DNA of 64,000 bases from Spirochaetota bacterium (GCA_965208615.1 CBDBPB010000002.1:64001-128000), one strand, 5' to 3'; numbered from the stretch's first letter, positions 3,411-56,417 are shown. Notes: generated by a model from the letters alone, not told the origin. A program made the numbers and translations.

Positions 3411-3555
3411 ATATTTTCCTTTAATAATTGGTTGATATAAGCGTTGGTATTTTTAATTATAATCTTTAGAGTTAAGATAACATATTTAGTTATAAAAGTT
3501 AATAGTTTAAGTTATTTTTATTAGATTTTTTTTAAAAGTATTTTTAATCTATGAT

Positions 3556-4268
3556 ATTACTAATTGTTCTAGTAGTATAGTTCAAAAGTATTTTAAGTTA
3601 GTTTATCTTTTTAAAACTTTCTAAAATGCAGATAAAATTTATTTATTAGTTGTCTTATAATAATTTTTTATCTAAAAGCTATAGTAGTTAGTAACAGGGA
3701 GTATATCTTTTCTTTTTTATGGTTTAGTATAGCAGGCACTTCATCAAGTTTAGGTTATTGACAATGGGGATAAACATAAACATTTACGTTTAGACTTTGA
3801 GTCAGGGCTGGCAAGTATATTTATTTTTTTTGTTAAGGTGTAAGGCGAGTAGGGTTCTTTTTTTTTGATAATTTAGTTTATCTAGAGTGATATTATTTAA
3901 TAATTTAGTTATCATTTTATGATAGAGTTATAGCAAAGCGTATAAGGTAAAAAGTGAGACATATAACGTAAAGGGAAGTGAATTCCAGATTTCTTTATGG
4001 AACAGGAAAGTTAAAATATTATTGGAAAAGTTATTTTCTTGTGTCATAGGTGTTATCCTTATATGCGCTTAAAGTGCTGTTTAAATGATTCAGTAATAAA
4101 CACAAAAAGCACTTTTTATGCAAGTAGTCATCACTACGAGAGCTATTAAGAATCCCTTACTGAGACTAAGGATTATAGACCTTTATTAAGTGATGACGGA
4201 TTCGCCTTTCCATAAAGGCTTAGAGCGGATTATTTAAATATCGCATATTGACGTTATGTGTAAAACCT
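3556..4268 (+). repeat. Dispersed non-coding element copy 1 (leader + one ~145 bp unit + 303 nt structured core at 3959-4261)
   Basis: Clear homology to 16762-18660 (+), 24062-24575 (-) and 49901-51374 (-); invariant 36-mer at 4140-4175. Confidence 0.93.
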
Positions 4269-4607
4269 CCGCCGATTAATTGGAACCTTCTTATATCATA
4301 GAATGTCCAACTTCGCTGATATAAAAAATATTCCCAAAAAAACATTACTATATCCTGCTAATAAACTTCATAACTCAATACCCATTTAACCATATCAATA
4401 TCATAAAAAAGTTAATTTACTTGCCTTATATTAAAAATATATTATCTTTTTACGTTAGAATTAAAGTGTTGTACATTAATTTTTAATGCTTATCCTTTCA
4501 TATAATTCTTTATATAGTTAGAAGATATTAGAAGTCGATTATTATTTTTGTAGTTTTACATAGGATTAATTAAATATAATGTTTTATAAAATTGAGCAGG
4601 AGGTAGA

Positions 4608-14536: not shown

Positions 14537-14726
14537 AAAACGACTTTTTGTTAAAAGCTATAGAATTAAAAATAAATTAACTTGTTCTATCACATATTAT
14601 AATGTTTATAGAAGGATAAGTCAAGTCTATTTATGCTATAACTGCTACTTATGCTACTTTGTTATAAAACCCATAAAAAAAGAGGAGCTATGCTCCCCTT
14701 AATTTTAACTGACTAAATAAATATAC
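14537..14726 (-). promoter_or_regulatory. Conserved paralog intergenic module: terminator (14675-14700) + sigma70 promoter TTGACT-N17-TATAAT (14596-14624)
   Basis: Near-identical to 54190-54427; partial copies at 26525-26666, 55802-55912 and 18716-18778. Confidence 0.8.
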
Positions 14727-16667
14727 TTAGTCGCCTGACTCACTTCTTGAGTCTTCATATTTATATGTATTACCAGCCTTGACAACCTTTCTATTACTTT
14801 TATCATCACCCGTTCCATAGGTTGCTTTGCCTTTTATGCTTGAATTATTATTATAAATAGCCCCGCCTTTGCCTTCTTTTTTATCTTCAATGCTACCAGC
14901 AATGTTTCCATTAAAAATCACATTACTAGTAAAAGTCACAGAGCTACCAATATTATACATGCCCCCTCCGTTATTAGAAGCCTTATTATTAGTAAAAGTC
15001 ACATCTGTTAACTTTGGAAACCCTGAAGCGTTATAATGATTATACATGCCCCCTCCAAGCTTAGCCTTATTTTCAGTAAAAGTCACATTTGTTAAAGTGG
15101 GCTTGCTATACCTCCAATTAATCATGCCCCCTCCAAAAATAGTAGCCGTATTGCCATTAAAAGTCACATTTGTTAACGTTGGAGAGCTATTCTCATTATT
15201 ATACATGCCCCCTCCGGACTGAGTAGCCGTATTGCCCTTAAAAGTCACAGTTGTTAAAGTGGGAGAGCTATTCTCATTATACATGCCCCCTCCAAACTTA
15301 GCCGTATTTTTAGTAAAAGTCACATCTTTTAATAACTTTGGAGAGCTCTTCGAATTATACATGCCCCCTCCGTTATTAGAAGCCTTATTATTAGTAAAAG
15401 TCACAGTTGTTAACTCTGGAGAGCTTTTATCATTATTATACATGCCCCCTCCGTTGCCCTGTATAATATCATCCGTTTTGGCCTTATTTTCAGTAAAAGT
15501 CACAGTTGTTAACGTTGGAGAGCTATTATTATTATACATGCCCCCTCCAAACTTAGCCGTATTTTTAGTAAAAGTCACATCTGTTAACTCTGGAGAGCTA
15601 TAATGATTATTATACATGCCCCCTCCATAATTAGCCGTATTGTCAGTAAAAGTCACATCTGTTAACTCTGGAGAGCTATAATAATTAAACATGCCCCCTC
15701 CTTGTTTGGCCGTATTGTCAGTAAAAGTCACAGTTGTTAACGTTGGAGAGCTAGTATTATTAAACATGCCCCCTCCGGACTGAGTAGCCTTATTTTCAGT
15801 AAAAGTCACATCTGTTAACGTTGGAGAGCTATTATTATTATACATGCCCCCTCCTTTATCTGTGGCCTTATTTTCAGTAAAAGTCACATCTGTTAACTCT
15901 GGAGAGCTATGATAATTATACATGCCCCCTCCTAAATCAGCCTTATTGTCAGTAAAAGTCACATCTGTTAACGTTGGAGAGCTATTATTATTATTATACA
16001 TGCCCCCTCCGTTATTAGTAGCCTTATTTTCAGTAAAAGTCACATCTGTTAACGTTGGAGAGCTCTTCTCATTATACATGCCCCCTCCTAAATTACGAGT
16101 ACCATTAGCATTGCCTTTGGTAATTATAACCCCTACTAACTTTGCAGTCTTATCTAGCTTTGCAGTAGCGGGATGATAAAAAACATTAAAGGCATCATCA
16201 CTATCATTGCCCTTTGTTCCAATATCACCGCTTAGGGTAGTCTTATGAGCTTTATGGTCATTACCCTCACCAACATTTTTACCAGGAAAACCCCCAATAA
16301 CCTCTACACCATTCCTTAATGAAAAATGCTTATGACGATCATTAGTACCTTTAGTTGGCTTACTAGTAGGCGTATAAGTCCCTTGGGCTACATATACCTT
16401 AACAGGTTTTTTAGTAGACTTAAACTTTTCTGAGGCTTTCTCAATACCCTCTTGTAGGTCACTATAAGCAGTTGTCCAAGATCTACCATTTTCAGTAGGA
16501 CGACGAGTTTTAGCTTCTTTTACAAAAACTCCTCCTACAGCACTTGGAATAGAGTTAGGAGAAGTAGGACTTATTACCTTACTAGCATCTTCCTCACAAC
16601 CAGCTCTAAGCATGGAAATACTAATTAATAGTATTATTAAAATGTTTAAATAACTTTTTTTTGTCAT
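14727..16667 (-). CDS. Pmp-like right-handed beta-helix repeat surface lipoprotein
   Basis: Signal peptide ending ..LRAGC; about 15 tandem 25-30 aa repeats GGGMYNxxSSPTLTDVTFTxNxA; start MTKKSY after a GGAG RBS. Confidence 0.85.
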   Translation of the reverse strand: MTKKSYLNILIILLISISMLRAGCEEDASKVISPTSPNSIPSAVGGVFVKEAKTRRPTENGRSWTTAYSDLQEGIEKASEKFKSTKKPVKVYVAQGTYTPTSKPTKGTNDRHKHFSLRNGVEVIGGFPGKNVGEGNDHKAHKTTLSGDIGTKGNDSDDAFNVFYHPATAKLDKTAKLVGVIITKGNANGTRNLGGGMYNEKSSPTLTDVTFTENKATNNGGGMYNNNNSSPTLTDVTFTDNKADLGGGMYNYHSSPELTDVTFTENKATDKGGGMYNNNSSPTLTDVTFTENKATQSGGGMFNNTSSPTLTTVTFTDNTAKQGGGMFNYYSSPELTDVTFTDNTANYGGGMYNNHYSSPELTDVTFTKNTAKFGGGMYNNNSSPTLTTVTFTENKAKTDDIIQGNGGGMYNNDKSSPELTTVTFTNNKASNNGGGMYNSKSSPKLLKDVTFTKNTAKFGGGMYNENSSPTLTTVTFKGNTATQSGGGMYNNENSSPTLTNVTFNGNTATIFGGGMINWRYSKPTLTNVTFTENKAKLGGGMYNHYNASGFPKLTDVTFTNNKASNNGGGMYNIGSSVTFTSNVIFNGNIAGSIEDKKEGKGGAIYNNNSSIKGKATYGTGDDKSNRKVVKAGNTYKYEDSRSESGD

Positions 16668-16752: not shown

Positions 16753-16761
16753 TAAAGTTAT

Positions 16762-18660
16762 TATTACTAATTGCTCTAGTAGTGTAGTTCAAAAGTATTT
16801 TAAGTTAGTTTATCTTTTTAAAACTTTCTAAAATGCAGATAAAATTTATTTATTAATTGTGTTATAATAATTTTTTATCTAAAAGCTATAGTAATTAGTA
16901 ACAGGGAGTATATCTTTTATTTTTTATGGTTTAGTATAAGAGGCCCTTATCAAGTTGAGGTTGTTGACAATGGGGATAAGCGTTTACGTTTAGACTTTGA
17001 GTTAGGGCTGGCAGGTATATTTATTTTTCTGTTAAGGTTAGGGAGAGTATAGCTTTTTTTTAATATTATGTTATTTAAATGATAAGAGGCCCTTATCAAG
17101 TTGAGGTTGTTGACAATGGGGATAAGCGTTTACGTTTAGACTTTGAGTTAGGGCTGGCAGGTATATTTATTTTTCTGTTAAGGTTAGGGAGAGTATAGCT
17201 TTTTTTTAATATTATGTTATTTAAATGATAAGAGGCCCTTATCAAGTTGAGGTTGTTGACAATGGGGATAAGCGTTTACGTTTAGACTTTGAGTTAGGGC
17301 TGGCAGGTATATTTATTTTTCTGTTAAGGTTAGGGAGAGTATAGCTTTTTTTTAATATTATGTTATTTAAATGATAAGAGGCCCTTATCAAGTTGAGGTT
17401 GTTGACAATGGGGATAAGCGTTTACGTTTAGACTTTGAGTTAGGGCTGGCAGGTATATTTATTTTTTGTTAAGGTTAGGGAGAGTATAGCTTTTTTTTAA
17501 TATTATGTTATTTAAATGATAAGAGGCCCTTATCAAGTTGAGGTTGTTGACAATGGGGATAAGCGTTTACGTTTAGACTTTGAGTTAGGGCTGGCAGGTA
17601 TATTTATTTTTCTGTTAAGGTTAGGGAGAGTATAGCTTTTTTTTAATATTATGTTATTTAAATGATAAGAGGCCCTTATCAAGTTGAGGTTGTTGACAAT
17701 GGGGATAAGCGTTTACGTTTAGACTTTGAGTTAGGGCTGGCAGGTATATTTATTTTTCTGTTAAGGTTAGGGAGAGTATAGCTTTTTTTTTAATATTATG
17801 TTATTTAAATGATAAGAGGCCCTTATCAAGTTGAGGTTGTTGACAATGGGGATAAGCGTTTACGTTTAGACTTTGAGTTAGGGCTGGCAGGTATATTTAT
17901 TTTTTGTTAAGGTTAGGGAGAGTATAGCTTTTTTTTTAATATTATGTTATTTAAATGATAAGAGGCCCTTATCAAGTTGAGGTTGTTGACAATGGGGATA
18001 AGCGTTTACGTTTAGACTTTGAGTTAGGGCTGGCAGGTATATTTATTTTTTGTTAAGGTTAGGGAGAGTATAGCTTTTTTTTAATATTATGTTATTTAAA
18101 TGATAAGAGGCCCTTATCAAGTTGAGGTTGTTGACAATGGGGATAAGCGTTTACGTTTAGACTTTGAGTTAGGGCTGGCAGGTATATTTATTTTTCTGTT
18201 AAAGTTAAAGGGATATTATTTAATAATTCAGTTGTCATTTTATGACAAAGTTATGACGAGGGATACAAGGCAAAAGGAAGACATATAACGTAAAGGCAGA
18301 TAGATTTTAGATTCCTTTGTGGAACAGGAAAGTTAAGATATTCATGGAAAAGTTATTTTCCTATGTCAAGCAGGTTATCTCTACATGCTCTTTAAGTGCT
18401 GCTTAAATGCCTTAGTAATTAACACAAAATATCACTTTTTATGCAAGTAGTCATCATTACGGGAGCTATTAAGAATCCCTTACTGAGACTAAGGATTAGA
18501 GACCCTTATTAAGTGTTAACGGATTCGCCTTTCCATAAAGGCGTAGAGCAGATTATTTAAATATTACATGTTGACGTTATGTGTAAAACCTCGAAAAGTA
18601 TACCTAATCCTCTATGATAAATAACAATCATAAAAAGTAAACTACTAAAACCTTCACTAA
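16762..18660 (+). repeat. Dispersed non-coding element copy 2 (leader + tandem array + 304 nt core at 18281-18584)
   Basis: Homologous to copies 1, 3 and 4. Confidence 0.93.
16936..18202 (+). repeat. Tandem array of ~146 bp units (8 full + 1 partial)
   Basis: Unit starts at 16936, 17082, 17228, 17374, 17519, 17665, 17812, 17958 and 18103; units differ only by 1 bp indels in T-runs. Confidence 0.97.
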
Positions 18661-18783
18661 CAAAATCGCCCGATAAAACCTTTTTTGTTATATTTGCTAA
18701 AACGTTTGTTAACGCCTATAACTGCTACTTATGCTACTTTGTTATAAAACTCGTAAAAAAATGCTCCTCTTGATTTTAGAAAG

Positions 18784-19035
18784 CTAATTATAAATAAATA
18801 GACTTATGGTGTTTGCTTTGGAATTGGTCAAATGGTTGACTCTACAAGTTTCTTTGTTATCAGCAATGTTTTTATTAAAACTCACATTTGTTAACTCTTG
18901 AGAGCTAACATTATTATACATGCTCCCTTTGCTATTATAAGATTCTGAATCAGAACTAGCATCGCCTTTCATAATTATAACAGCCTCTAACTTTGCAGTT
19001 TTATCTTTAGGGTGAACAAAAACTATGATAGGCAT
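18784..19035 (-). pseudogene. Degenerate relic of a Pmp-like beta-helix gene
   Basis: DKTAKLEAVIIMKG, GSMYNNVSSQELTNVSFNKNIA fragments; followed by a damaged copy of the paralog terminator module at 18716-18778. Confidence 0.75.
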
Positions 19036-19384: not shown

Positions 19385-20639
19385 ATGCCTAACAATAAAC
19401 CTATTTTAGTAGTTGGTGGCGGTATAAGCGGTATGACATCTGCTTTAGAGGCTGCTGAGGTAGGGTATGAGGTTATTATTATAGAGAGCTCTCCTTATTT
19501 TGGTGGGCGGGTATCTCAGATGAATAAGTACTTTCCTAAGTTATGTCCCCCTTACTGTGGGTTAGAGATTAACTTTAGGCGGATTAAGACTAATCCTAGA
19601 ATAACTTATTATACTACGGCTCAGATAAAGGCTATATCTGGTGAGGCTGGTAGTTTTAAGGTGGATGTTAATATTAGCCCTAGGTATGTTAACAATAAGT
19701 GTACGGCGTGTGATGAATGTGTTAAAGTTTGTCCTGTAGAGAGAAAAGACGATTATAATATGGCTATGACTAATAACAAGGCTATTTATATGAGTCATAA
19801 GATGGCTTTTCCTGCTAAGTATGCTATTGACTCTGATGTTTGTAAGTTTAGCGAGTGTAATAAGTGTGTTGATGTTTGTAAGTATGACGCTATCGATTTT
19901 GGTATGCAGTCTAAGACCATATCTTTGGATATATCATCTATTATATATGCCACTGGATGGCGTCCTTATGATGCCACTAAGATGGATAATTTAGGTTTTG
20001 GGCAATATGAAAATATAATAACCAATATTATGATGGAGAGGTTAGCGGCTTCTAATGGTCCTACTGGTGGTAAGGTTGTTAGACCATCTGATGGCAAAGA
20101 GGCTAAAAATGTGGTATTTGTACAATGTGCTGGATCAAGGGATGAAAATCACCTGCCTTATTGTTCATCTATTTGTTGTATGGCGTCTTTAAAGCAGTCC
20201 ACCTTTGTGAGAGAGCAGTATGAGGATTCTAAGGTACATATTTTTTATATAGATTTGAGGACTCCGGGTAAGTATGAGAAGTTTTTATCCAAGATAAGGG
20301 ATGATGAGAATATTAGTTTTACTAAGGGCAAGGTAGCAAAGGTCAGTGAGGATAGTAAAACCAAAAACATAATTGTAGAGGCTGAGGATACCATTGCTAT
20401 GAAAAAGGTTAAGGTTGAGGCTGACTTAGTGGTATTGGCAACTGGGATGGAGCCATCATCTTTGAGTTGTGATTTACCTAGTGAGGTTAAGGTTAATGAC
20501 ATAGGGTTTATGTCGGCTGAGCTTCAGGGTCCTGGTATATATGCTGTTGGTGTTGGAAAGCAGCCTGTTGATGTTATGACGTCTGTACAGGATTGCAACT
20601 GGTGGTGCACTAAAGGCTATTCAGACTATAAGGAGTTAA
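19385..20639 (+). CDS. qmoA: QmoA (HdrA-like flavoprotein); one apparent +1 frameshift near 20593
   Basis: VVGGGISG, YFPKLCPPYCG, VQCAGSRDENHLPYCSSICC. Removing one T restores DATGGALKAIQ and a stop at 20639. Confidence 0.88.
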
Positions 20640-20641
20640 CT

Positions 20642-22813: not shown

Positions 22814-22821
22814 GAGGTATT

Positions 22822-23994
22822 ATGTCTAACAATATGCTTATAGAGCCTAGTTTAGATTTTGCTAAGGACATTGCTGATAGTGGTGCTAATTGTATGCAGA
22901 AGTGTTATCAATGTGCCACTTGTTCTACGGTATGTAAGTTATCGTCTGATGATAGTCCTTTTCCGCGTAAGGAGATGATGTGGGCTCAATGGGGATTAGA
23001 GGATAAACTAGTTAATGATCCTGATATATGGTTATGTCACCAGTGTAATGATTGTGTTAAGTACTGTCCCAGAGAGGCAAGGCCTGGTGATTTAATGGCG
23101 GCTTTAAGAAAGCGTACATTTAAGCATTATGCCATACCTGGTTTTATGGCAAAGTTATTGGGTAAGCCTAAGATGTTACCGTTGTTATTAGCTATACCTG
23201 CCATTATTTTTTTAGTTATTGTTATGGTTAATGGTAGTTTATCTAATCTATCGGGCGAGATTATTTATTCTAAGCTTGTTCCTATGGGTTATATTGATGT
23301 AGTTTTCATCCCGCTATTTTTGTTAGGGGTTGCTACGTTATTGATATCGCTAAACAGTTTTTGGAAGGGCATGAAGGCTCATGATAACCCTACTCGTGAG
23401 ACTAGTAGCTTTATTGGGGCTATTATTAATACTGCTAAGGATATTTTATTCCACACGAAGTTTAAAGAGTGCGATGTTAATAAGGCTAGGCGTATAGCTC
23501 ATTGGATGACGTTATTTGGTTTTATTGGTTTAGCCATTACCACTACGTACGTGTGGATAATAAATTGGTTTATGACTAATCCGCTAACTGGAAAGGGATA
23601 TACTACGCCTCTTGAGACGTCAGGTGCACCAGGTGCATTATTATTCAAGGGTTTTGCGACTATTAGTGCTGGATTATTTATAGTTGGTGCAATTTTATTA
23701 TTTATTAACAGAAGAAAGGCTATGACTATTTCCAAGTCTAAGACTACTGGTTATGATTGGATATTTATGGCGATGATATTTTTTACTGGTCTAACTGGTA
23801 TGTTGAGTGTTATGCTTAGAAAGCAGGAGTTAGCTATAATTGCCTATCCTATTTATTTTATACATTTGATATGTGTATTTTACGTATTGGTATATTTACC
23901 ATATTCGAAGTTAGCTCATTTAGGTTATCGTTTTACGGCAATGGTATACTCTAAATATACTGGTAGGGATTTATCTAACAAGTCTGAGGAGTAG
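22822..23994 (+). CDS. qmoC: QmoC (HdrC-like Fe-S domain fused to a heme b membrane domain)
   Basis: KCYQCATCSTVC, FPRKEMMWAQWG, WLCHQCNDCVKYCPR, TM helices, YLPYSKLAH. Confidence 0.92.
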   Translation: MSNNMLIEPSLDFAKDIADSGANCMQKCYQCATCSTVCKLSSDDSPFPRKEMMWAQWGLEDKLVNDPDIWLCHQCNDCVKYCPREARPGDLMAALRKRTFKHYAIPGFMAKLLGKPKMLPLLLAIPAIIFLVIVMVNGSLSNLSGEIIYSKLVPMGYIDVVFIPLFLLGVATLLISLNSFWKGMKAHDNPTRETSSFIGAIINTAKDILFHTKFKECDVNKARRIAHWMTLFGFIGLAITTTYVWIINWFMTNPLTGKGYTTPLETSGAPGALLFKGFATISAGLFIVGAILLFINRRKAMTISKSKTTGYDWIFMAMIFFTGLTGMLSVMLRKQELAIIAYPIYFIHLICVFYVLVYLPYSKLAHLGYRFTAMVYSKYTGRDLSNKSEE

Positions 23995-24061: not shown

Positions 24062-24575
24062 TATTAGGCTATTTGTAAAGAGGATCTAGTAGTTTACTTT
24101 TTATGATTGTTATTTATCATAGAGGATTAGGTATACTTTTTTGAAGTTTTACATATAAAGTCAATATGTAATATTTGAATAATCCGCTCTACGCCTTTAT
24201 GGAACTACAAATCCGTTAACACTTAATAAAGGTCTCTAATCCTTAGTCTCAGTAAGGGATTCTTAATAGCTCTCGAAGTGATGACTACTTGCATAAAAAG
24301 TGATATTTTGTGTTCATTACTAAGGCATTTAAGCAGCACTTAAAGAGCATAGAGGGATAACCTGCTTGATACAAGAAAATAACTTTTTCATAAATATCTT
24401 AACTTTCCTGTTCCACAAAGGAATCTAAAATCTATCTGCCTTTACGTTATATGTCTTCCTTTTGCCTTGTATCCCTCGTCATAACTCTGTCATAAAATGA
24501 TAACTAAATTATTAAATAATATCCCCTAAATAAACTAATATCAAAAAAGAAAAGCCATGCTCCCCTTAGCCTTAA
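24062..24575 (-). repeat. Dispersed non-coding element copy 3 (304 nt core at 24151-24454, only a fragment of the unit)
   Basis: Reverse complement of ~18210-18660 at high identity. Confidence 0.93.
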
Positions 24576-24748: not shown

Positions 24749-26524
24749 ATGCTAAAAACTAAGAGTTATTTGAAACTTTTAACAACACTATTAATTAGTT
24801 TATCACTATTTAGCTGTGATAATAATGCGGTTAATGAGGCATTAGGTGATAAAAATACCAGTGCCATAAAAACTGCAAAGGTAAAAGAAGATAAATCTAC
24901 TATAAAGGGTTATATACTAGGGGGAGTGCATGTAAGAGCTAATGCAAATGCTGGAGGTGATGGATCAACTTGGCAAAAAGCTTTTAATGACCTTCAAAAG
25001 GCTATTGATAAAGCTAAAAAAGATGGGGGCATAGTATATGTTGCTCAAGGGACTTATAAGCCTAATAGCCATCCCAACGGCGGTAGCGGGGAACGTAATA
25101 AACATTTTGCCTTACGAAATAATGTAGTAGTCATTGGGGGATATACCACTAACCGCGATAAACGGGATAAGGATCCTACTAAGACTATTTTAACTGGTGA
25201 TCTTGGTAATACAAGGGTACTTAATGTTTTTTATAATAAGGGTTTAAATAAAACTTCAAAGTTGAAGTACTTTACTATTACTAAGGGCAAGGCTGATGGT
25301 GCTAATAAGGGCAGTGGAGGGGGTATGTATAATGATAATAGCTCTCCAAGTTTGATAAGCATTAACTTTGAGGGTAATGAGGCTAAAAATAGTGGTGGAG
25401 CTATTTATAACAGTAATAGCACTTCAAATTTAATAAGCGTTAATTTTAAGGATAATAATGCTAAAAACGGTGGGGCAATGTATAATGCTAATAAAAGCTC
25501 TCCAAAGATAGTCAATTCTAGGTTTAATAATAATACGGCTGAAGATGGAGGGGGCATGTATAATGATAATAGTTCTCCAAAGTTAATGTACAGTTATTTT
25601 ACTGGTAATAAATCTATCAGTAATAACTGGCAAATAGGAGATGGAGGAGGGGGCATGTATAATAATAATAGTAAACCTATTTTATTAGGCATTAGTTTTA
25701 CTAATAATACGGCTAAATATAGGGGAGGGGGCATGTATAATTATAGTAATAGCTCTCCCACTTTAATAGATGTGGAGTTTAATAGTAATACGGCTAGAAA
25801 GAATGGAGGGGGCATGGCTAATGGTAATAGCTCTCCCACTTTAACAAATGTGAAGTTTACTAATAATACGGCTACATATTACGGAGGGGGCATGTATAAT
25901 ACTAATAGCTCTCCCACTTTAGAAAATGTGACTTTTAATAGCAATTCGGCCACATGGGGAGGGGGCATGCATAATTGGAAAAGCTCTCCCACTTTAACAA
26001 ATGTGAAGTTTAATAGCAATTCGGCCCCATGGGGAGGGGGCATGTATAATACTAATAGCTCTCCCACTTTAGAAAATGTGACTTTTGAGAGTAATACGGC
26101 TACATATTACGGAGGGGGCATGTATAATACTAATAGCTCTCCCACTTTAAAAAATGTGAAGTTTAATAGCAATTCGGCCCCATGGGGAGGGGGCATGTAT
26201 AATACTAATAGCTCTCCCACTTTAGAAAATGTGACTTTTGAGAGTAATACGGCTACATATTACGGAGGGGGCATGGTTAATTATAATAATAGCTCTCCCA
26301 CTTTAGATAATACGGTGATTTTTAATAAAAACATTGCTGGTAGTGTTGCTAATAGCCAAATAGGCGAAGGCGGGGCTATTTATAATGTTGTTGGTTCTAG
26401 ATATGGTCCTGACTCAAGAATAATAGGCACACCAACCTATGGAACGGGTGATGATGAAAATAAAAAGGTTATCAAAGTGGATAATACATATAAACTTGTA
26501 AAGTCAAACCTTGAGTCAGGCTAA
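24749..26524 (+). CDS. Pmp-like beta-helix repeat surface lipoprotein
   Basis: Lipobox LFSC; VYVAQGTY domain; multiple GGGMYN..SSPTL repeats; GGAIYN C-terminal cap. Confidence 0.87.
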   Translation: MLKTKSYLKLLTTLLISLSLFSCDNNAVNEALGDKNTSAIKTAKVKEDKSTIKGYILGGVHVRANANAGGDGSTWQKAFNDLQKAIDKAKKDGGIVYVAQGTYKPNSHPNGGSGERNKHFALRNNVVVIGGYTTNRDKRDKDPTKTILTGDLGNTRVLNVFYNKGLNKTSKLKYFTITKGKADGANKGSGGGMYNDNSSPSLISINFEGNEAKNSGGAIYNSNSTSNLISVNFKDNNAKNGGAMYNANKSSPKIVNSRFNNNTAEDGGGMYNDNSSPKLMYSYFTGNKSISNNWQIGDGGGGMYNNNSKPILLGISFTNNTAKYRGGGMYNYSNSSPTLIDVEFNSNTARKNGGGMANGNSSPTLTNVKFTNNTATYYGGGMYNTNSSPTLENVTFNSNSATWGGGMHNWKSSPTLTNVKFNSNSAPWGGGMYNTNSSPTLENVTFESNTATYYGGGMYNTNSSPTLKNVKFNSNSAPWGGGMYNTNSSPTLENVTFESNTATYYGGGMVNYNNSSPTLDNTVIFNKNIAGSVANSQIGEGGAIYNVVGSRYGPDSRIIGTPTYGTGDDENKKVIKVDNTYKLVKSNLESG

Positions 26525-26555
26525 TAAGTATATTTATTTAGTCAGTTAAAATTAA

Positions 26556-26579
26556 GGGGAGCATAGCTCCTCTTTTTTT
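26556..26579 (+). terminator. Rho-independent terminator of the paralog module
   Basis: GGGGAGC-ATA-GCTCCTC followed by T7. Confidence 0.75.
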
Positions 26580-26620
26580 ATGGTTTTTATAACAAAGTAG
26601 CAGTTATAGCATAAATAGAC

Positions 26621-27112: not shown

Positions 27113-27622
27113 ATGAAAAAGCTTAACAGAAGAGGTTTTTTAAAGTTAAGCTCTGGAGTTGCAGGAGCTGTTATAGTTAGTACATCTTGCGGTAATAGTG
27201 GTAGTATTGCTGATAGTTCTAATAAAAGTAGTAGTTCTTTCCCTACAAATACTATAGCCCAGTTAAAGGAGCTTAAAGTCGGAAAACCAAAGGATTTTAA
27301 CTATCCTGATAAGAATTCCCCATGTATTTTAATCAAGTTAGGTAATAGTGCTTTGGGTGGGGTTGGTCCTGATAAAGATGTTGTGGCATTTAGTAAATTA
27401 TGTTCTCATATGGGATGTCCTGTACTTTATGATAGTAAAAAAGCTGTATTAAAATGTGGTTGTCACTTTAGTATTTTTGATCCTGGGGTAGCTGGTCAGC
27501 AAGTATGTGGTCAGGCTACTGAAAAACTGCCACAAGTTGTACTTGATTATGACTCTAAAAGTGGTGCTATTAGTGCTACTGGTATGAATGGTATAGTTTA
27601 TGGCAGACAAAGTAATATTTAA
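27113..27622 (+). CDS. aioB: Arsenite oxidase small (Rieske) subunit
   Basis: Tat signal RRGFLK; FNYPDKNSPC, GGVGPD, CSHMGC, CGCHFS, GQQVCGQATEKLP. Confidence 0.92.
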   Translation: MKKLNRRGFLKLSSGVAGAVIVSTSCGNSGSIADSSNKSSSSFPTNTIAQLKELKVGKPKDFNYPDKNSPCILIKLGNSALGGVGPDKDVVAFSKLCSHMGCPVLYDSKKAVLKCGCHFSIFDPGVAGQQVCGQATEKLPQVVLDYDSKSGAISATGMNGIVYGRQSNI

Positions 27623-27637
27623 TAAGGAGGAAATTAT

Positions 27638-30097
27638 ATGAATGCTAAAAGAATACCTTTACCCCCTAAAGGGACTAAACCTAGTAATTTAACTTGTCAT
27701 TTTTGTATAGTTGGTTGTGGATATAGGGTATATAAATGGCCTATAAGTAGAGAGGGAGGTCCTAGTAAGGGTGATAATGCTCTAGGACTTGATTTTACAA
27801 AGCCATTAGTGGCACAAGAGATAACTTTAACCTCTTCTATGGTTAACGAGATACAGGATAATAACGGCAGAAAGTATAATATAATGATTATTCCTGATAA
27901 AAAATGTGTTGTAAATGAGGGCTTATCATCTACTAGAGGTGGAGCTTTGGCTAGCTTAATGTATAACAGTGCTTCTCCTACTAGTAATCGTTTAAAATAT
28001 CCATCAATATTTACTGGAGATAGCTGGTCTGATACTAATTGGGATTATGCTTTAGATTTGTATGCCGCTCTTACAAAGAAGATATTGGATAATGATGGAC
28101 CTGATCAGATATTTTTTAATGCTTTTGATCACGGTGGAGCAGGCGGTGGCTTTGAGAATACTTATGCTAGTGGAAAGTTAATGTTTTCGTCTATAAAGAC
28201 TAAGATGGTACGAATACATAATAGGCCTGCATATAACTCTGAGTGTCACGGTAGTCGTGATATGGGGATTGGTGAGTTGAACAACAGTTATGAAGATGCT
28301 CAACTTGCGGATACTATATTTTGTATAGGGGCTAACCCTTATGAAACACAAACTAATTACTTTTTAGCACATTGGTTAGCCAACTTTAGGGGAGCTAGTT
28401 TAGATAAGAAAAAGAAACGTTTTCCAGATGAAACCGTTGATAGCGCTAGGGTTATATTTGTTGATCCAAGGCGTAGTCCGACTATTGCTATTAGTGAGCA
28501 GATTGTGGGTAAGGATAAGGTTTTACATTTGGACATAAATCCTGGTACTGATATAGCTTTATTTAATGGTCTTTTTACTTATGTGGTTGATAAGGGTTGG
28601 CATGACAAGGAATTCATATCTAAACATACTAGCGGTTTTGACTCTTCATTGGCTAGTAATAGGATTTCTTTGGATGAGTGTAGTAAAATTACTGGGGTTA
28701 GTAAGGATAAGATTATTAAGGCGGCAGAGTGGGCTTATAAGTCTAAAAAGTCTGGTCATAGACCGCGAACAATGCATGCTTATGAAAAAGGTATTATATG
28801 GGGTAATGATAATTATCATATACAGGTGTCATTAGTGGATCTTGTATTGGCTACTCATAATGTGGGACGTCGTGGTACTGGGGTTGTTAGATTAGGCGGA
28901 CATCAAGAGGGATATGCTAGACCTCCATATCCGGGTCCTCGTCCTGCTCCGTATATAGATAAAGAAATTATCAATGGTAATGGTAAGATGCTTACTGTTT
29001 GGGCGTGTAATTCGTTGCAGACAACTTGTAATGCGGATACTTATAAAAAAGCAATATTAAAAAGGTCTAATATAGTTAGGGATGCTCTATCTAGGTTAAC
29101 TGCACCGTCTTTAAATAAGGTGGTAGATACCATATATAGTGCTATTAACAGAGGTGGACTTTTTATTACTACTATTGATATTTATCCTACTAAGTTTGCT
29201 GAAGTTGGACATCTTGTTATGCCGGGTGCTCATCCTGGTGAAATGAATTTAACATCCATGAATGGTGAAAGAAGAATGCGTCTTTCTGAGCGATTTATGG
29301 ATCCTCCTGGTCTTGCTAAACCTGACTGTCTTATAGCGGCAGATATTGCTAATAAAATTAAGGCCTTATATGCTAAAGAAGGTAATAATGAAATGGCTGA
29401 TCGCTTTTCTGACTTTGACTGGAAGACAGAAGAAGATGTATTTAATGCTGGATTTAGAAAACCAAAAGGTATAGATAGTCAGGGGGGTGGAACAGGTAAT
29501 ATAGCTAGTTATGAGCGTCTTAAGGCTATGGGTAATGACGGTGTTCAGTTGCCAATTAAGGAATATAAGGATGGTAAGCTAGTTGGAACAGAAATGATTT
29601 ATTCTGATTATAAGTTTTCTACCAAAGATGGTAAGGCTCATTTTATGAGTTCTCCTTGGAAGGGATTACATCCTACTGTAGCTAAACAAAAGAAAAAGTA
29701 TAACTTTTGGATAAACAATGGTCGTAATAATCAGATATGGCAGAGTGCTTATCATGATAGGTATATGGAGTTTAGAAAAAACCGTTATCCTATGGCGCCT
29801 GTTGAGATTAATCCTGTTGATGCTAAAAAGCTCAATATAAAAAGTAGTGATATAGTTGAGATATATAATGATTTTGGTTCAACTTATGCTATGGCATATT
29901 TAGAAGAGGATATAAAGCAGGGTCATGTATTTATGATGTTTGCATATCATAATGGTACAGCCGGGGATATTACCACTGATGCTGTTGATGAGAATATTGT
30001 CCCTTATTATAAAGGTACATGGGCAAACATTCGTAGGTTTGGTACTATGGCTGAATATGAAAAAACTGTTAGTTTTAAGTCGAGAAGATATAGTTAG
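27638..30097 (+). CDS. aioA: Arsenite oxidase large molybdopterin subunit
   Basis: [60 protein letters not shown]. Confidence 0.93.
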
Positions 30098-49900: not shown

Positions 49901-50150
49901 TTTTTACTCATAGGGGATTAGGCATACTTTTTTTAGATTTACTGTGTGTTATCAAAGGTATTACTATGCTATTGTAAAGAGGTTTTGCTAGTTTACTTTT
50001 TATAATTGTTGTTTATTTATAGGGGATTAGGCATACTTTTTTTAGATTTACTGTGTGTTATCAAAGGTATTACTATGCTATTGTAAAGAGGTTTTGCTAG
50101 TTTACTTTTTATAATTGTTGTTTACTCATAGGGGATTAGGTATACTTTTT
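49901..50150. repeat. Tandem repeat, 109 bp period, ~2.3 copies
   Basis: TAGGGGATTAGG at 49911, 50020 and 50129. Confidence 0.9.
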
Positions 50151-50532
50151 TGAAGTTTTACACATAACGTCAATATCTAATATTTAAATAATCCGCTCTA
50201 CACCTTTATGGAACTGCAAATCCGTTAACACTTAATAAGGGTCTATAATCCTTAGTCTCAGTAAGGGATTCTTAATAGCTCCCGTAATGATGACTACTTG
50301 CATAAAAAGTGATATTTTGTGTTAATTACTAAGGCATTTAAACAGCACTTAAAGAGCATATAGGGATAACCTGCTTGACACAGGAAAATAACTTTTCCAT
50401 AAATATTTTAACTTTCCTGTTCCACAAAGAGATATAAAATACATCTGCCTTTACGTTATATGTCTTGCTTTTTACCTTGTAGACTTTGTCATAACTATGT
50501 CATAAAATGACAACTGAATTATTAAATAATAT

Positions 50533-51374
50533 CCCTTTAGCCTTAACAAAAAATAAATATACTTACTCGTCTGACTTAAAGTCTAAGCGTACAAGTTTAT
50601 ATGCATGTCTATTTTCAACAACCTAAACTTGATGGAGTATCCGTTATACTAAACCATAAAAAAGAAAAACTATATTCCCTTTAACCTCAACAAAAAATAA
50701 ATATACCTACCAGCCCTAACTCAAGGTCTGAGCGTACAAGTTTATATGCATGTCTATTGTCAACAACCTAAACTTGATAGAGTGCCTGTTATACTAAACC
50801 ATAAAAAAGAAAAACTATATTCCCCTTAGCCTCAACAAAAAATAAATATACTTACTCGCCTGACTTAAAGTCTAAGCGTACAAGTTTATATGCATGTCTA
50901 TTGTCAACAACCTAAACTTGATGAAGTATCCGTTATACTAAACCATAAAAAAGAAAAACTATATTCCCCTTAGCCTCAACAAAAAATAAATATACTTACT
51001 CGCCTGACTTAAAGTCTAAGCGTACAAGTTTATATGCATGTCTATTGTCAACAACCTAAACTTGATGAAGTATCCGTTATACTAAACCATAAAAAAGAAA
51101 AACTATATTCCCCTTAGCCTTAACAAAAAATAAATATACTTACCCGCCTGACTTAAAGTCTAAGCGTACAAGTTTATATGCATGTCTATTGCCAACAACC
51201 TAAACTTGATGGAGTGCCTGTTATACTAAACCATAAAAAAGAAAAGCTATATTCCCCTTAGCCTTAACAAAAAATAAATATACTTACTCGCCTGACTCAA
51301 GGTCTGAGCGTACAAGTTTATATGCATGTCTATTGTCAACAACCTAAACTTGATGAAGTATCCGTTATACTAAA
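50533..51374 (-). repeat. Tandem array of ~144 bp units (about 6 copies, with substitutions between units)
   Basis: AACAAAAAA(A)TAAATATAC at 50545, 50689, 50834, 50978, 51122 and 51266. Confidence 0.96.
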
Positions 51375-51396
51375 TTATCACATATTATGTATAGGT

Positions 51397-54189
51397 ATGG
51401 CAATTGGGAATATTAAAACCTCTTATTAAAATATAGCTATCCCCTTTGAAATAGGTTTAAGTACTTTTTCAGGATGCGGAGAGGATGATATATCCTGTGA
51501 GGCTCTGGGTGATTGTGATAAAAATGTTGAAAGTCAGCTAGAGAAAGCAAAAGATGAGGTTACAGCTGCAAATAAAGAGGTTAACGATGCAAAGAAAGAG
51601 GTTAAAAAGGATAAAAAATTAACGCCTGAAGAATTAGAAGAAGCAAGAAAAAAATTAGAAGAAGCAAGAAAAAAATTAGAAGAAGCAGAAAAAAGATTAA
51701 AAGAAGCAAAAAAGATATTAGAAAAGCTAGAAGATATGTTCCTTAAGGTTTGCAAGGTAACAAGAACTACGGATGCTTATATTAACGCTGTTACTTGTAA
51801 TAAGACTCTCGAGGATAAGTGTAATGGTGAGTGGGATTCACAAGACTGTATAGCGTCTCTTGGTACGGCAATTGGGGTATGTAGAGTAGAAAAAGATACA
51901 ACTACTCGTACTGACGTTGTTACTTGTAATACGATGGTTCAAAGTGAGTGTGATGACAAACTAGGTGAGTGGGGCTTGCAAAGCTGTACTACAAATCCTG
52001 GTACTAAAAGGCTAAAAGCAGTGCCAGAAGCAATATGCAAGGTAATTAGAGATACAGCTTCTCATGCTAATGTAGTTACTTGTAATACAATGGTTCAAAG
52101 TGAGTGTAGTAAAAGTAAAAGAAAAGGTAATTGGAATCCACAAATCTGTAATCCAGATATTGGTACGCCAATAAGTAAAACCTGTAAGATAATAAAAGAT
52201 TCGGATACTCATACTGATGTTGTTACTTGTCAGACTACTACTAAGGCTGATTGTCCAAGTCCAAGTGTGTGGGATCCAAAAACCTGTATTCCGTCTATTG
52301 GTAATACATGTAAGATAACAGAAAATACGGATAGTCATACCGGCGTTGTTACTTGTAAAAAAACTACTAAGGATGATTGTCAAGGTGAGGGGCGTGCGTG
52401 GGGTCTACTAGCCTGTACTGAGTCTATTGGTACTCCAATAACTAAGACATGCAAAGTGGAAAAAGATACGGATAGTCATACCGGCGTTGTTACTTGTGAT
52501 AAAACTACTAAAACTCAGTGTGATACTGATAAGGGTACCTGGGACCCACCAAGCTGTGAGCCGTCTGATGGTACAAAAAGGCAAACACCAGTGGAAGAAA
52601 AGGTTTGTAAGATAACAAAAGATACGGATACTCATACAGGCGTTGTTACTTGCGATAAGAATATTAAGACTGAGTGTGATACTAAACAAGGTGAGTGGGA
52701 TCCACAAACCTGTACTCCGTTTACTGGTCAGCCCAAGACTAAGATTTGTAAGATAACAACAGAGACGTATACTCATACAGGCGTTGTTACTTGTGATACA
52801 ACTACTAAGGCTCAGTGTGATACTGATAATGGTGATTGGGACTCACAAAGCTGTACTACAAATCCTGGTACGCCTAAGACTAAGGTTTGCAAGATAACAG
52901 AAAATACGCCTACTCGTAGAGGTGTTGTTACTTGTGATACAGCTACTAAAACTCAGTGTGATACTGATAAGGGTGAGTGGGGCTTAAAAAGTTGTACTCC
53001 ATCTAAGGGTAAGGCAATTAAGGTTTGTAAGATAACAACAGAGACGCCTAGTCATACAGGCGTTGTTACTTGTGAGAAAACTACTAAAACTAAGTGTGAT
53101 ACTAAACATGGTGAGTGGGACTCAACAAACTGTACTCCGTCTGCTGGTACGCCCATACCAAATGGTACGCCCATACCACCTGGGGTTGTTTTTGTAAAAG
53201 CTGGAACTCGTACTACTAAAAATGGGAAATCCTGGAATACTGCTTATAGTGATCTTCAAAAAGGTATTGAGGAAGCCTCAGAAAAGTTTAAGTCTACTAA
53301 AAAACCTGTTAAGGTATATGTAGCCCAAGGGACTTATAAGCCTCAGAGTAGGCCAAATGGTGGTACTAGTGATCGTCATAACCATTTTTCATTAAGGAAT
53401 GGTGTAGAGGTTATTGGGGGTTTTCCTGGTCTAATTACTGGTGAGTCTAATAATCCTAACTACTATAAGACTGTCCTAAGCGGTGATATCAGAAGAGTGG
53501 GCGATGATAGTGATAACGCCTATCATGTTTTTTATCATCCAGCTACTGCAAAGCTAGATAACACTGCAAAGTTAGTAGGGGTTATAATTACCAAAGGCAA
53601 TACTAATACTAGTAGTAATTCCCATAGTTCTGGAGGAGGCATGTTTAATTATGAGAGCTCTCCAACGTTAACAAATGTGGAGTTTAATAGTAATACGGCA
53701 TCATACGGAGGGGGCATGGATAATACTAGTAGTAGCTCTCCAACGTTAACAAATGTGGAGTTTAATAGTAATACGGCATCATACGGAGGGGGCATGTTTA
53801 ATTTTAATAATAGCTCTCCAACGTTAAAAGATGTGACTTTTACTAGTAATACGGCTACTTATAGAGGAGGGGGCATGTATAATTATAATGAGAGCTCTCC
53901 CACTTTAACAAATGTGACTTTTACTAGTAATACGGCTAATAGGTACGGAGGGGGCATGGTTAATTGGGGTAATAGCAAGCCCACTTTAGATAATACGGTG
54001 ATTTTTAATAAAAACATTGCTGGTAGTGTTGCTAATAGCCAAATAGGCAAAGGCGGGGCTATTTATAATTATTCCTCAAGCATAACAGGCACACCAACCT
54101 ATGGAACGGGTACTAATGAAAATAAAAAGGTTGTCAAAAATAATAATGGCACATATAAACTTATAAAGTCAAACCTTGACTCAGACTAA
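51397..54189 (+). pseudogene. Pmp-like beta-helix lipoprotein with coiled coil and 10 Cys-rich repeats; in-frame TAA at codon 11 (51427-51429)
   Basis: MAIGNIKTSY*NIAIPFEIGLSTFSGC, then an open frame through to 54189; the listed ORF at 51736 starts at an internal Met. Confidence 0.7.
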
Positions 54190-54427
54190 TAAGTATATTT
54201 ATTTAGTCCGTTAAAATTAAGGGGAGTATAGCTCCTCTTTTTTTTATGGTTTTTATAACAAAGTAGCATAAATAGCAGTTATAGCATAGATAGACTTGAC
54301 TTATCCTTCTATAAATATTATCCTATGTGATAGAACAAGTTAATTTACTTTTAATTCTATAGTTTTTAATAAAAAGTTGTTTTTTGTTTAGTTTGAGTTA
54401 TCTTATAAAAAAACAAGGAATTAAGTT
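54190..54427 (+). promoter_or_regulatory. Paralog intergenic module: terminator (54221-54245) + promoter variant TTGACT-N17-TATCCT (54296-54324)
   Basis: Near-identical to 14537-14726 except at the -10 box. Confidence 0.75.
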
Positions 54428-55801
54428 ATGACAAAAAAGAATTATTTAAACATTTTAATAATACTATTAATTAGTATTTCGTTAGTTAGGGGCAAGTGCG
54501 ATTCCGATAAGGTAATAAGTCCTCCTTCTGATGGTACAGAAAGGCCAGAACCAGTGGAAGAAAAGGTTTGTAAGATAACAACAGATACGGATACTCGTAG
54601 AGGTGTTGTTACTTGTGAAAAGAATACTACTAATTGTCAAGGTGAGTGGGTCGTAGGATGTCGTCCATCTAACGGTATACTTATTCCAAAAGCTCAAAAA
54701 GATCAAATTTTTGTAAAAGCTTTAAACCAAGATGAAAGGCGCTCTAATGAAGATGGAAAGTCCTGGACAACTGCCTTTAGTGATCTTCAAAAAGGTATTA
54801 AGTATGCTTTTGAGAATAATAAAAAGATGGTATATGTAGCCCAAGGGACTTATAAGCCTACTAGTTATCCAAATGGTGGTAGTGGTGATGATCGTTATAA
54901 GCATTTTTCATTAAGGAATGGTATAGAGGTTATTGGAGGCTTTCCCGGTGAAAAGCTTGATGAGCCTAATAATCCTGAGCAATATGAGACTATTCTAAGC
55001 GGTGATATTGGAACTAAAGATGATAGAGATAACGTCTATCATGTTTTTTATCATCCTGATGGTACAAACCTAAATAACTCAGCAAAGCTAGCTGGGGTTA
55101 CAATTACCCAAGGCTATGCTTATTTTGCGTCTCCTGATGTTAATGAGCCTCGTAAGTTAGGAGGGGGCATGTATAATTTTAAGAGCTCTCCAACGTTAAC
55201 AACTGTGACTTTTCGTAATAATACGGCTAGAGATGGAGGGGGCATGTATAATTTTAAGAGCTCTCCAACGTTAACAGGTGTGGCTTTTACTGAAAATACG
55301 GCTATTACCGGAGGGGGCATGCGTAATTATAAGGATAGCTCCCCAACGTTAAAAGATGTGACTTTTACTAAAAATGAGGCTACTGTTAACGGAGGGGGCA
55401 TGCATAATTGGGATAATAGCTCTCCAAAGTTAACAGATGTGACTTTTACTAAGAATAAGGCTACTATTAACGGAGGGGGCGGCATGTATAATTATTATTA
55501 TAGCTCCCCAAAGTTAACAGGTGTGACTTTTAATAGTAATACGGCTAGTAGGTACGGAGGGGGCATGTTTAATTTTGTTGGTTGCTCTCCAGAGTTCATA
55601 AGTAATGTGGTTTTTAATAAAAACATTGTTGGTAGTGTTGGTAGTGACCTAATAAGCTACGGCGGGGCTATTTATAATAGTAAGACTTCAGCCATAACAG
55701 GCACTCCAACCTATGGAACGGGTGATGATGAAAATAAAAAGGTTGTCAAAAATACAGATGGCACATATAGTTTTGTAAAGTCAAACAGTTGGCCATGGTA
55801 A
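54428..55801 (+). CDS. Pmp-like beta-helix lipoprotein with one Cys-rich repeat
   Basis: MTKKNYLNILIILLISIS signal, VCKITTDTDTRRGVVTC, VYVAQGTY, six GGGM repeats. Confidence 0.87.
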   Translation: MTKKNYLNILIILLISISLVRGKCDSDKVISPPSDGTERPEPVEEKVCKITTDTDTRRGVVTCEKNTTNCQGEWVVGCRPSNGILIPKAQKDQIFVKALNQDERRSNEDGKSWTTAFSDLQKGIKYAFENNKKMVYVAQGTYKPTSYPNGGSGDDRYKHFSLRNGIEVIGGFPGEKLDEPNNPEQYETILSGDIGTKDDRDNVYHVFYHPDGTNLNNSAKLAGVTITQGYAYFASPDVNEPRKLGGGMYNFKSSPTLTTVTFRNNTARDGGGMYNFKSSPTLTGVAFTENTAITGGGMRNYKDSSPTLKDVTFTKNEATVNGGGMHNWDNSSPKLTDVTFTKNKATINGGGGMYNYYYSSPKLTGVTFNSNTASRYGGGMFNFVGCSPEFISNVVFNKNIVGSVGSDLISYGGAIYNSKTSAITGTPTYGTGDDENKKVVKNTDGTYSFVKSNSWPW

Positions 55802-55832
55802 TAAGTATATTTATTTAGTCCGTTAAAATTAA

Positions 55833-55857
55833 GGGGAGCATAGCTCCTCTTTTTTTT
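55833..55857 (+). terminator. Rho-independent terminator of the paralog module
   Basis: GGGGAGC-ATA-GCTCCTC followed by a T-run. Confidence 0.75.
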
Positions 55858-55958
55858 ATGGTTTTTATAACAAAGTAGCATAAATAGCAGTTATAGCATA
55901 GATAGACTTGACTATATATTTAATTTTGATATATATTTTTATAGTGCATAGAAGACTA

Positions 55959-56153: not shown

Positions 56154-56417
56154 TTTAACTCCTTTTTATAATTAAAGTATCGGTAATATATAATTTAATA
56201 CAAGGATTATAATATAAAAATAAATTTTATATACTTGTTAAATTATGTTTAGATAGCTTATAATAAATCTTATTTTTTTTTAAATTAACTTGTATTATGT
56301 TGTATTTCTTTTTATAATTTACGAGTTAAGTAATTTTAAATATTATTGTATACAAAGCTATTTAACTATAATAAAGCTATTTAACTATAATAAAGCTAAT
56401 ATGAGTTAACAGAGTTT

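Follow-up and report, generated by a model that had tools for sequence, protein, structure and literature searches.

Satellite-like arrays of decayed beta-helix gene tails in a dispersed, inverted-repeat-bounded element family of a Spirochaetota bacterium

A tandem array of 144-bp units lies at 50532..51374 of a 64,000-nt stretch of DNA from a Spirochaetota bacterium (GCA_965208615.1, CBDBPB010000002.1:64001-128000; this whole stretch is called the window), and it was analyzed here together with the 2.46-Mb genome. This array and a 146-bp array in the same window are probably satellite-like local amplifications of a dead 3'-end fragment of a beta-helix (Chlam_PMP-type) gene, carried in a repeat element that consists of a left module F, an inner gene-tail module T and a non-coding body E of ~490 nt (in the order F-T-E). 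The first-pass annotation of the window had recognized the ~145-bp unit as a gene tail and offered two interpretations: either gene ends were captured and then amplified as satellite-like arrays, or captured genes receive their C-terminus and terminator from the unit, which would be the end of an element. The former gained support from the clade structure, the absence of a breakpoint, a longer gene relic and the decay of the units described below, and the latter did not. The main context had been missed, namely that the arrays belong to a dispersed element family bounded by inverted repeats. Plain coordinates refer to the window, and those preceded by C1, C2 and so on to the contigs of the assembly.

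Array units are decayed copies of beta-helix gene ends

Tandem Repeats Finder resolved the first array (T144, minus strand) into 5.8 copies with a period of 144 bp and 93% matches, and the second (T146, plus strand, 16936..18207) into 8.7 copies with a period of 146 bp and 99% matches. Both are head-to-tail and non-coding, without an open reading frame (ORF) of at least 100 aa, and thus are satellite-like arrays. The T144 unit is a decayed copy of roughly -95..+50 around the stop codon of a beta-helix gene. Six units of the 144-bp array and nine of the 146-bp array were aligned by MAFFT with four gene tails, which end at 26524 (+), 14727 (-), 54189 (+) and 55801 (+), and the aligned homology runs from ~40 nt before the stop through the stop and the spacer TAAGTATATTTATTT to TAAGGGGA..TATAG..TTTTTT. 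Overall, the units of both arrays are homologous to the last ~30 codons, stop, spacer and terminator of the Chlam_PMP beta-helix genes, and the continuation of the homology through the spacer and terminator module, as first described, is confirmed. Local alignment of the 144-bp unit with the four tails gave identities of 82/98, 78/96, 93/116 and 88/115, with z = 31.6, 24.5, 29.6 and 16.5 against dinucleotide shuffles. For the 146-bp unit, which reads ..EVVDNGDKRLRLDFELG.. and was rightly taken as a more diverged version, z was 9.3-11.6, and the observed score was matched by 0/500 shuffles in each unit-tail comparison. The translations on which the tail identity had been based are exact: the minus strand of 51284-51343 gives VVDNRHAYKLVRSDLESGE and a stop, and the gene ends give VIKVDNTYKLVKSNLESG (26524) and VVKAGNTYKYEDSRSESGD (14727), each followed by a stop. 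The 35-mer compared with 26487-26521 indeed matches at 31/35 positions.

The units have lost the properties of the gene end. An intrinsic terminator hairpin is intact in all four gene tails (-13.1 to -15.9 kcal/mol, z -3.4 to -4.5), and equal stability was reached in 0/200 shuffles. The corresponding segment of the array units, in all three that were folded, reaches -3.6 to -4.5 kcal/mol (z +0.3 to -0.75), with 49-123 of 200 shuffles equally stable, and is not a terminator by this measure, in agreement with the earlier remark that its right arm is decayed. A scan of 16600-19400 found 0 terminator-like sites. In the 144-bp units, an in-frame stop was read directly just upstream of the tail frame. 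In the 146-bp units the ancestral stop codon is gone, and because of this loss each of them holds an ATG-started frame of 33-39 aa (MIRGPYQVEVVDNGDKRLRLDFELGLAGIFIF.., 17079-18288, +), with no Shine-Dalgarno-like sequence or ribosome-binding site visible upstream. Annotators are likely to call these frames as a run of tiny genes. Since the units no longer code nor terminate, they most likely have no function of their own.

The native tails lie at 26466..26581 (plus; last codons, stop, spacer and intact terminator of gene 24749-26524), 14674..14788 (minus; gene 14727-16679), 54128..54250 (plus; gene 51736-54189, whose start faces the 144-bp array) and 55740..55862 (plus; gene 54428-55801). Pfam and NCBIfam place three of the four genes in the Chlam_PMP / POMP-repeat beta-helix class; the fourth, 51736-54189 (paralogue P0003), has no match in either, yet the family tail is present. 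Its product (+, 817 aa) starts like a lipoprotein and includes a charged coiled-coil-like stretch, cysteine-rich parts encoded by 141-bp repeats (52325-53150) and a beta-helix end with the family tail.

The F-T-E element and the origin of its gene-tail module

A profile search (nhmmer) of the genome with E returned 62 matches, 40 of them full length, which are 82-95% identical to the window copy. Four copies lie in the window. The first (50079..50556, minus; C2:114556-114079) adjoins the T144 array on its 5' side at the junction ..TAAAGGGA to TATTATTTAATAATTCAG.., without an ORF of at least 100 aa; the second (18187..18673, plus) lies by the 146-bp array. Both arrays meet the 5' side of E at the same junction, ..TAAAGGGA to TATTATTTAATAATTCAGTTGTCATTTTATGAC... 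The third (24074..24548, minus), in which T is reduced to a terminator remnant, faces the start of gene 24749 with its 5' side, and the fourth belongs to a one-copy locus described below. No ORF of at least 30 aa exists in the copy read for this (18187-18673). Rfam gave no match at gathering score in the window, nor at an expectation value of 1 or below in 16600-19400; no tRNA or tmRNA was found, and no intron RNA family was matched in Rfam. The consensus fold of 37 copies contains 12 compensatory versus 224 broken cells on the plus strand and 7 versus 168 on the minus strand. With far more broken than compensated pairs and no Rfam family, E was rejected as a structured non-coding RNA. E was not detected in any of the 30 relatives searched, and the genome stands alone in its family and genus among the genomes compared. 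Two conserved E patterns, exact and degenerate, gave 0 matches in metagenome_contigs, in scans of a kind that misses diverged copies.

At array-free loci, the element appears as a discrete block of ~0.7-0.8 kb, about -250..+490 around the start of E, set in unique flanks; it is thus a short, non-coding, multi-copy unit in unrelated surroundings, as expected of a miniature inverted-repeat transposable element (MITE). The locus at 3555..4291 (plus; F 3555-3731, T 3735-3865, E 3861-4291) is the one-copy counterpart of the array locus at 16755-18673, and the two F modules are 96.6% identical. In the array locus, F occupies 16755..16905 (plus) with a left inverted-repeat-like site at 16760-16787, and the right inverted-repeat end lies at 18642-18663. 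The left boundary TTGTTACTAATTGTTTTAGTAG (the start of F) and the right boundary CTACTAAAACCTTCACTAACAA form inverted repeats with 17/22 matching positions, as read directly, and the ends of ~22 nt take the form TTGTTA..GTTTTAGTAG. A copy at C1:370182-370976 carries a perfect 27-bp inverted pair. When the end motif TTGTTA-NN-RA-NN-GTTYTAGTAG was searched genome-wide with at most two substitutions, 101 sites were found, of which 30 lie inverted at right ends of E, 52 lie in direct orientation upstream of E, and 19 lie elsewhere. The geometry expected of inverted-repeat ends is therefore present at 82/101 sites, with several upstream sites per array. As the start of F is the left end and the end of E the right end, T lies inside the element, between F and E. 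Two other candidates were discarded: terminal inverted repeats within the E body alone, where only weak pairs occur, and ATAATTTAG as a recombination core site, which shows no enrichment beyond the element itself (149 found versus 203 expected).

The profile of T matches 89 copies in the genome. Twelve end beta-helix frames or fragments, two are partial copies in a thirteenth such gene, and the remaining 75 are non-coding copies in arrays or adjoining E. The 12 T-terminated open frames (49-919 aa) all share the end ..GGAIYN..TPTYGTGDDENKKV..NTYKLVKSNLESG, their beta-helix homology continues upstream without a breakpoint, and none of the 12 is followed by E within 400 nt. Most T copies close to E extend further, over about -95 to +45 around the stop, and have the decayed frame SYRKCSDEGKKVMK / VIDNGDKYKHVGLGFESDE versus TYGTGDDENKKVIKVDNTYKLVKSNLESG in the genes; the 144- and 146-bp units have the same extent. 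In the tree of units and paralogues (48 distinct T sequences), which the first-pass annotation had proposed, the 12 genic copies group in a single clade (support 0.993) that contains none of the 36 non-coding copies, with the rooting left open. A single genic clade is compatible with T having been captured once, or very few times, and having then diversified within the element family. Furthermore, the 318-bp units at C1:406506-407780 consist of F joined to a gene segment from -222 to about +10 that includes an in-frame TAG. They keep ~130 nt more coding sequence (~220 nt of gene body), which is of the ordinary PMP-repeat type that is also matched in proteins of other phyla, so that at any rate this piece must have passed from a gene into the element. 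At 18723..19035 (minus), directly joined to the right side of E, lies what remains of the 3' end of a beta-helix gene (..GSMYNNVSSQELTNVSFNKNIADNKE..), together with its downstream region.

Collectively, the single genic clade, the restriction of T-terminated frames to beta-helix genes without a breakpoint and the ~220-nt gene-body relic argue for the direction gene to element, followed by amplification. The reverse direction, in which the beta-helix genes acquired their C-terminus and terminator from T as the end of an element, is very unlikely. In its favor, the tail peptide was detected in this genome alone: among 30 proteins with expectation values of 0.01 or below from 5.8 billion proteins searched, the last ~25 residues are covered by five, all of them its own, and the peptide was found in 0/12 relatives searched. 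Distant beta-helix homologues from metagenome-assembled genomes of Planctomycetota and Chloroflexia (L007-L012) match only to query residue 567/591. The absence from other taxa had been suggested as a mark of an element-derived tail; the absence was found, but it does not separate such a tail from a lineage-specific one, and the tail could accordingly still, conceivably, derive from an element very long ago, in the ancestor of the gene family. The tail codons also lack a third-position excess, with codon-position diversities (1/2/3) of 0.22/0.18/0.17 in 11 genic tails and 0.215/0.159/0.14 in 36 non-genic T copies. However, such an excess is missing anywhere in the last 450 nt, and as the gene body is equally flat the test is uninformative about the tail in particular and about selection, and it lends no support to constraint on the tail at the protein level. 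An element end is further contradicted by the internal position of T between F and E, by the lack of E after the gene-terminal copies, by the adjoining PMP-repeat coding sequence held in element copies, and by the genic copies forming one clade and not several insertions. Frames that end in T all belong to one family with homology continuous upstream. When the 12 gene ends are compared in pairs, identity climbs steadily from 0.67-0.72 to 0.8-0.9 around the stop and terminator and drops to about 0.45 after +57, with no step at -95 or -40, that is, no breakpoint where T begins. In nine paralogues, conservation is by far the highest over the 57 nt that follow the stop, with site diversity of 0.01-0.10 versus 0.2-0.27 in the coding parts of the last 450 nt (in the window 26525-26581, 54190-54250, 55802-55862 and 14674-14726); gene conversion, or constraint on the 3' end at the nucleotide level, may be the cause.

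Proposed local amplification and spread of the element

A whole-genome census of arrays (period of at least 60 bp, Tandem Repeats Finder score of at least 100) yielded 64 arrays, 27 of them non-coding. Eighteen of these 27 adjoin the 5' end of a full E (within -130..+200 nt) and three adjoin a 3' end, so the 144-bp array is one case of a genome-wide pattern. The E-linked periods are 74, 110, 144-146, 156-158, 165, 169, 201-208, 222, 263 and 318 bp, and one further locus has periods of 137/266/403. The content of the unit varies by locus and comprises F alone (74-75 nt), T alone (the 144- and 146-bp arrays), F with T, or T with ~110 nt from the start of E. One of the three arrays at the 3' end of E, a 109 bp x 2.3 tandem repeat with 96% matches, lies at 49903..50151 and overlaps the 3' end of the E copy there. 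Two arrays of the 74-nt F, at C4:91068-92178 and C4:131028-131917, hold 15 and 12 copies with 96-97% matches; both carry the left inverted-repeat motif in every unit and lie 81 nt upstream of E copies.

At one-copy loci, T is bracketed by short direct repeats, which are TGATAATTTAG at C4:381963 and C8:89804 and ~30-nt terminator remnants at 3700-3900 and 16900-16940. The 144-bp units are a mosaic of two variants, as unequal exchange would give. The junctions between units differ (..TTTTTTATGGTTTA to GTATAAC.. in the 144-bp array versus ..TTATTTAAAT to GATAAGAGG.. in the 146-bp array), which indicates that the two arrays were amplified separately. Slippage or unequal recombination between short direct repeats would be the simplest mechanism of amplification. 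We propose that a non-coding repeat element came to enclose the 3' piece of a gene, with at most ~220 nt of its coding part as well as stop, spacer and terminator, and that the F-T-E composite then multiplied to about 40 copies, spreading partly as discrete ~0.7-0.8-kb blocks in unrelated intergenic regions and partly with neighboring beta-helix genes. At many copies, the stretch from the left end to E would have expanded in place through slipped-strand or unequal recombination between direct repeats such as the terminator remnants and TGATAATTTAG. The outcome would be arrays of differing period and content (F, T, F plus T, or T plus the start of E), with T144 and T146 as one subfamily behind two separately amplified arrays.

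The tree of E agrees with a common history of the modules. All seven copies linked to T144 or T146 fall in one clade, and T and E are thus inherited together. The E body of the one-copy locus at 3555-4291 falls in another clade than that of its 8.7-copy counterpart, which points to recombination among copies. The T144 subfamily also has a conserved left flank of ~100 nt, found in the window at 51375..51470 (minus) and 97-98% identical at C2:151518, C4:381955, C4:602775 and C3:2957.

Misassembly of repeats as the source of the arrays and copy numbers is extremely improbable. Some E and T loci do lie near contig ends (e.g. C3:2430, C7:2625, C4:602682 and C3:161304), and short-read contigs of run X1 break in the repeats, with one skipping a unit. 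Nevertheless, 18 arrays, which vary in period and content, are located within contigs of 142-605 kb, their units carry ordered variants and are not identical, and T and E pieces also occur in contigs of other runs of the same study.

Several observations weigh against the reading of the arrays as amplified relics in a mobile F-T-E element, beside the flat codon-position profile given above. Target-site duplication is not seen: the mean adjacent direct repeat is 1.5 nt in 26 copies versus 1.36 in mismatched controls, with element boundaries uncertain by a few bases. In this 99.4%-complete genome, Y1_Tnp, RVT_1, DDE_Tnp_1, rve, TnpB zinc ribbon, IS110, Mutator and DDE_3 gave 0 matches. More specifically, an IS200/IS605-type or REP/RAYT system is not indicated (PF01797 0 matches, PF07282 0 matches), nor is a diversity-generating retroelement, retron or group II intron (reverse transcriptase PF00078, 0 matches), and no multi-copy transposase exists among 1810 ORFs. 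The sole mobility candidate is a Mu-like 5.2-kb duplicate (locus L013; C3:10639-15823 and C7:425842-431041, 98.5% identity), which was rejected as a partner since the ends of the duplicated stretch, which need not be its true ends, are unlike the inverted repeats. The left inverted repeat is lost in the T144 subfamily, including the copies of the array in question, and the nearest upstream neighbor of the E copies linked to T144 or T146 is a beta-helix-type ORF in 4/7 cases, two of them fragments, so that spread may have occurred by segmental duplication and not by transposition. The one-sided bias of arrays at E is unexplained by slippage alone, and array copy numbers come from one assembly. 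Finally, the 5' (array) side of E faces a divergent gene start in 28/40 copies (two-sided binomial p about 0.02).

L013, of Mu-like or Tn-like character, encodes a DUF3102 protein, a 532-aa protein with a sub-threshold rve (integrase-core) match and an AAA_22/MuB/TniB-like ATPase, and one of its two copies has a partial E copy (C7:424549-424829) some 1 kb away.

Segmental duplication is also part of an explanation that dispenses with any mobile element and which we consider quite unlikely. Here the F-T-E blocks are ghosts of tandem beta-helix clusters whose coding sequence was deleted, with F as the upstream region, T as the tail and E as the downstream region. F is indeed found upstream of gene 24749 and downstream of the genes at 26524 and C4:586562, the 318-bp unit resembles F fused to the last ~230 nt of a gene, and the T144 subfamily lies mostly beside beta-helix-type genes. 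But F is near only 5/12 beta-helix ORFs and its orientation is inconsistent, being upstream of three (two on the same strand, one on the opposite) and downstream of two, and F as a regular upstream region of the family was rejected with only 3/12 genes. E follows 0/12 gene-terminal T copies, the 82/101 motif sites show inverted-repeat end geometry, and many F-T-E blocks are discrete ~0.7-kb units with unique flanks and unrelated neighboring genes, all of which speak against such ghosts of gene clusters.

Possible roles, related systems and significance

A functional cis or trans element, in which E and its array act on the neighboring gene or on the beta-helix family, is unlikely, though the orientation bias of E speaks for it. 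Three forms were considered: a variable promoter-side spacer (phase variation), a transcript running from E towards the divergent gene and carrying the family 3' ends in antisense, and a homology tract for gene conversion of the paralogues' 3' ends. In the window, three of the four E copies face the start of an adjoining beta-helix-type gene (14727-16679, 24749-26524 and 51736-54189), promoter-like hexamers occur on the minus strand of E at 18587-18560 and 18641-18614, and the strong conservation of the 57 post-stop nt would suit such a role. However, promoter-like sites are no commoner than in shuffles (17 versus 12.7 +/- 3.3), and the upstream neighbors of the full E copies are beta-helix genes in only 7/40 cases. 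The gene downstream of E is of mixed orientation in 37 copies (21 same, 15 opposite, 1 without a neighbor), and on the same 21 versus 15 count E as an outward promoter for the downstream gene was rejected. The E consensus fold, with 7-12 compensatory versus 168-224 broken cells, also speaks against a functional RNA, as the locus-dependent content of the array units does against a functional element in general. The chance that T, E or the arrays serve in regulation or recombination is thus rated as low.

The F-T-E element is a variant of known bacterial repeat kinds, resembling BOX or MITE. The BOX elements of Streptococcus pneumoniae (boxA - boxB(n) - boxC) are dispersed and intergenic, with longer arrays varying more, and have inverted repeats, target duplications and a proposed insertion-sequence partner, according to the part of the source that treats them (PMC3049150). 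With two end modules around a variable tandem module, as outlined in the same part of that source, BOX is the nearest bacterial architecture to F-T-E (PMC3049150). BOX elements span 67-637 bp, compared with an E body of ~490 nt and array units of 74-318 bp. The boxB module measures 45 bp. Unlike BOX, F-T-E has no detected target duplication or partner, and what is repeated in it is the remains of a gene 3' end. Bacterial MITEs (e.g. Correia, RUP and Nezha), as summarized in the portion of the review that concerns them, are likewise short, AT-rich, non-coding, multi-copy and intergenic with terminal inverted repeats (PMC3049150). F-T-E differs from them in being larger than most, in its captured gene fragment and in its internal arrays, and it fails two of the four tested MITE-defining features, target duplication and a partner transposase. 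In plants, Pack-MULE and Pack-MITE elements carry a gene fragment between the inverted-repeat ends of a non-autonomous element and are copied around the genome. They differ in being eukaryotic, in having a known transposase family and target duplications, and in that no tandem amplification is implied.

In behavior, F-T-E is nearest to the eukaryotic Helentrons/HINEs, whose internal tandem repeats occur as dispersed satellite-like arrays; those of the oyster are non-autonomous, with flanking modules and central repeats, and their arrays are dispersed with the element, in the relevant section of the source (PMC7492417). Unlike Helentrons, which are eukaryotic rolling-circle elements, F-T-E occurs in a genome where Y1_Tnp was not found, and no HUH/Rep gene or hairpin-end signature has been shown. 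DINE-1 of Drosophila is reportedly a similar non-autonomous element with internal tandem repeats. Dispersed families of non-coding tandem repeats are rare, being reported in the results consulted from one survey for only Leptospira interrogans and Methanocella conradii among 261 species (PMC6749651). The F-T-E arrays resemble the L. interrogans satellites as non-coding tandem families at several places of the genome; the repeat lengths there are 37-69 nt (Table 2), and that work, in the part consulted, connects them with neither a gene tail nor an inverted-repeat element (PMC6749651). Narrow full-text literature searches found no description of bacterial arrays built from the last codons and terminator of a gene.

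Other features of the window and genome are as follows. A Rieske subunit and a molybdopterin oxidoreductase with a Rieske_3 domain form an arsenite-oxidase-like pair at 27113-30097 (+), and an HdrA-like flavoprotein/ferredoxin cluster lies at 19385-23994 (+); both have sdh/frd and nuo genes as neighbors. Upstream of the nuo operon, at 56354-56398, a 19-bp sequence (AAAGCTATTTAACTATAAT) is perfectly repeated in direct orientation (2.4 copies). Tandem families include six lipoprotein-like paralogues (~308 aa) at C1:264765-270918 and four membrane-protein paralogues (~565 aa) at C2:48789-55919. Flagellins starting MIINHN.. are encoded at C3:49893-50921, C7:409302-410333, C4:313803-314675 and C7:274865-275725. 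We take this N-terminus to be typical of spirochaetal FlaB, which together with lipobox-like signal peptides presumably suggests a deep-branching spirochaete.

A bolder proposal, to which we give little credence, is that F-T-E represents an undescribed bacterial non-autonomous element (TG..CA-type ends, 22-27-bp inverted repeats, no target duplication) that, in the manner of eukaryotic Helentron-type elements, carries a captured gene tail and seeds satellites at a fixed internal site, with T kept at the nucleotide level by pairing or recombining with beta-helix 3' ends. If so, such pairing or recombination would homogenize or regulate the beta-helix surface-protein family, as a built-in handle for surface variation. 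For annotation, the 33-39-aa frames and terminator-like motifs of the arrays should be treated as relics and not as genes or terminators, and the present analysis flags an orphan family of inverted-repeat elements with no transposase visible. The genome holds 21 E-linked arrays of long-unit satellites, a kind reported rare in prokaryotes in the portion of the survey drawn on here (PMC6749651). The origin of one of the repeated units is directly readable as the tail of a surface-protein gene, and the arrays thus probably provide a bacterial example of the passage from gene fragment to repeat element to satellite.

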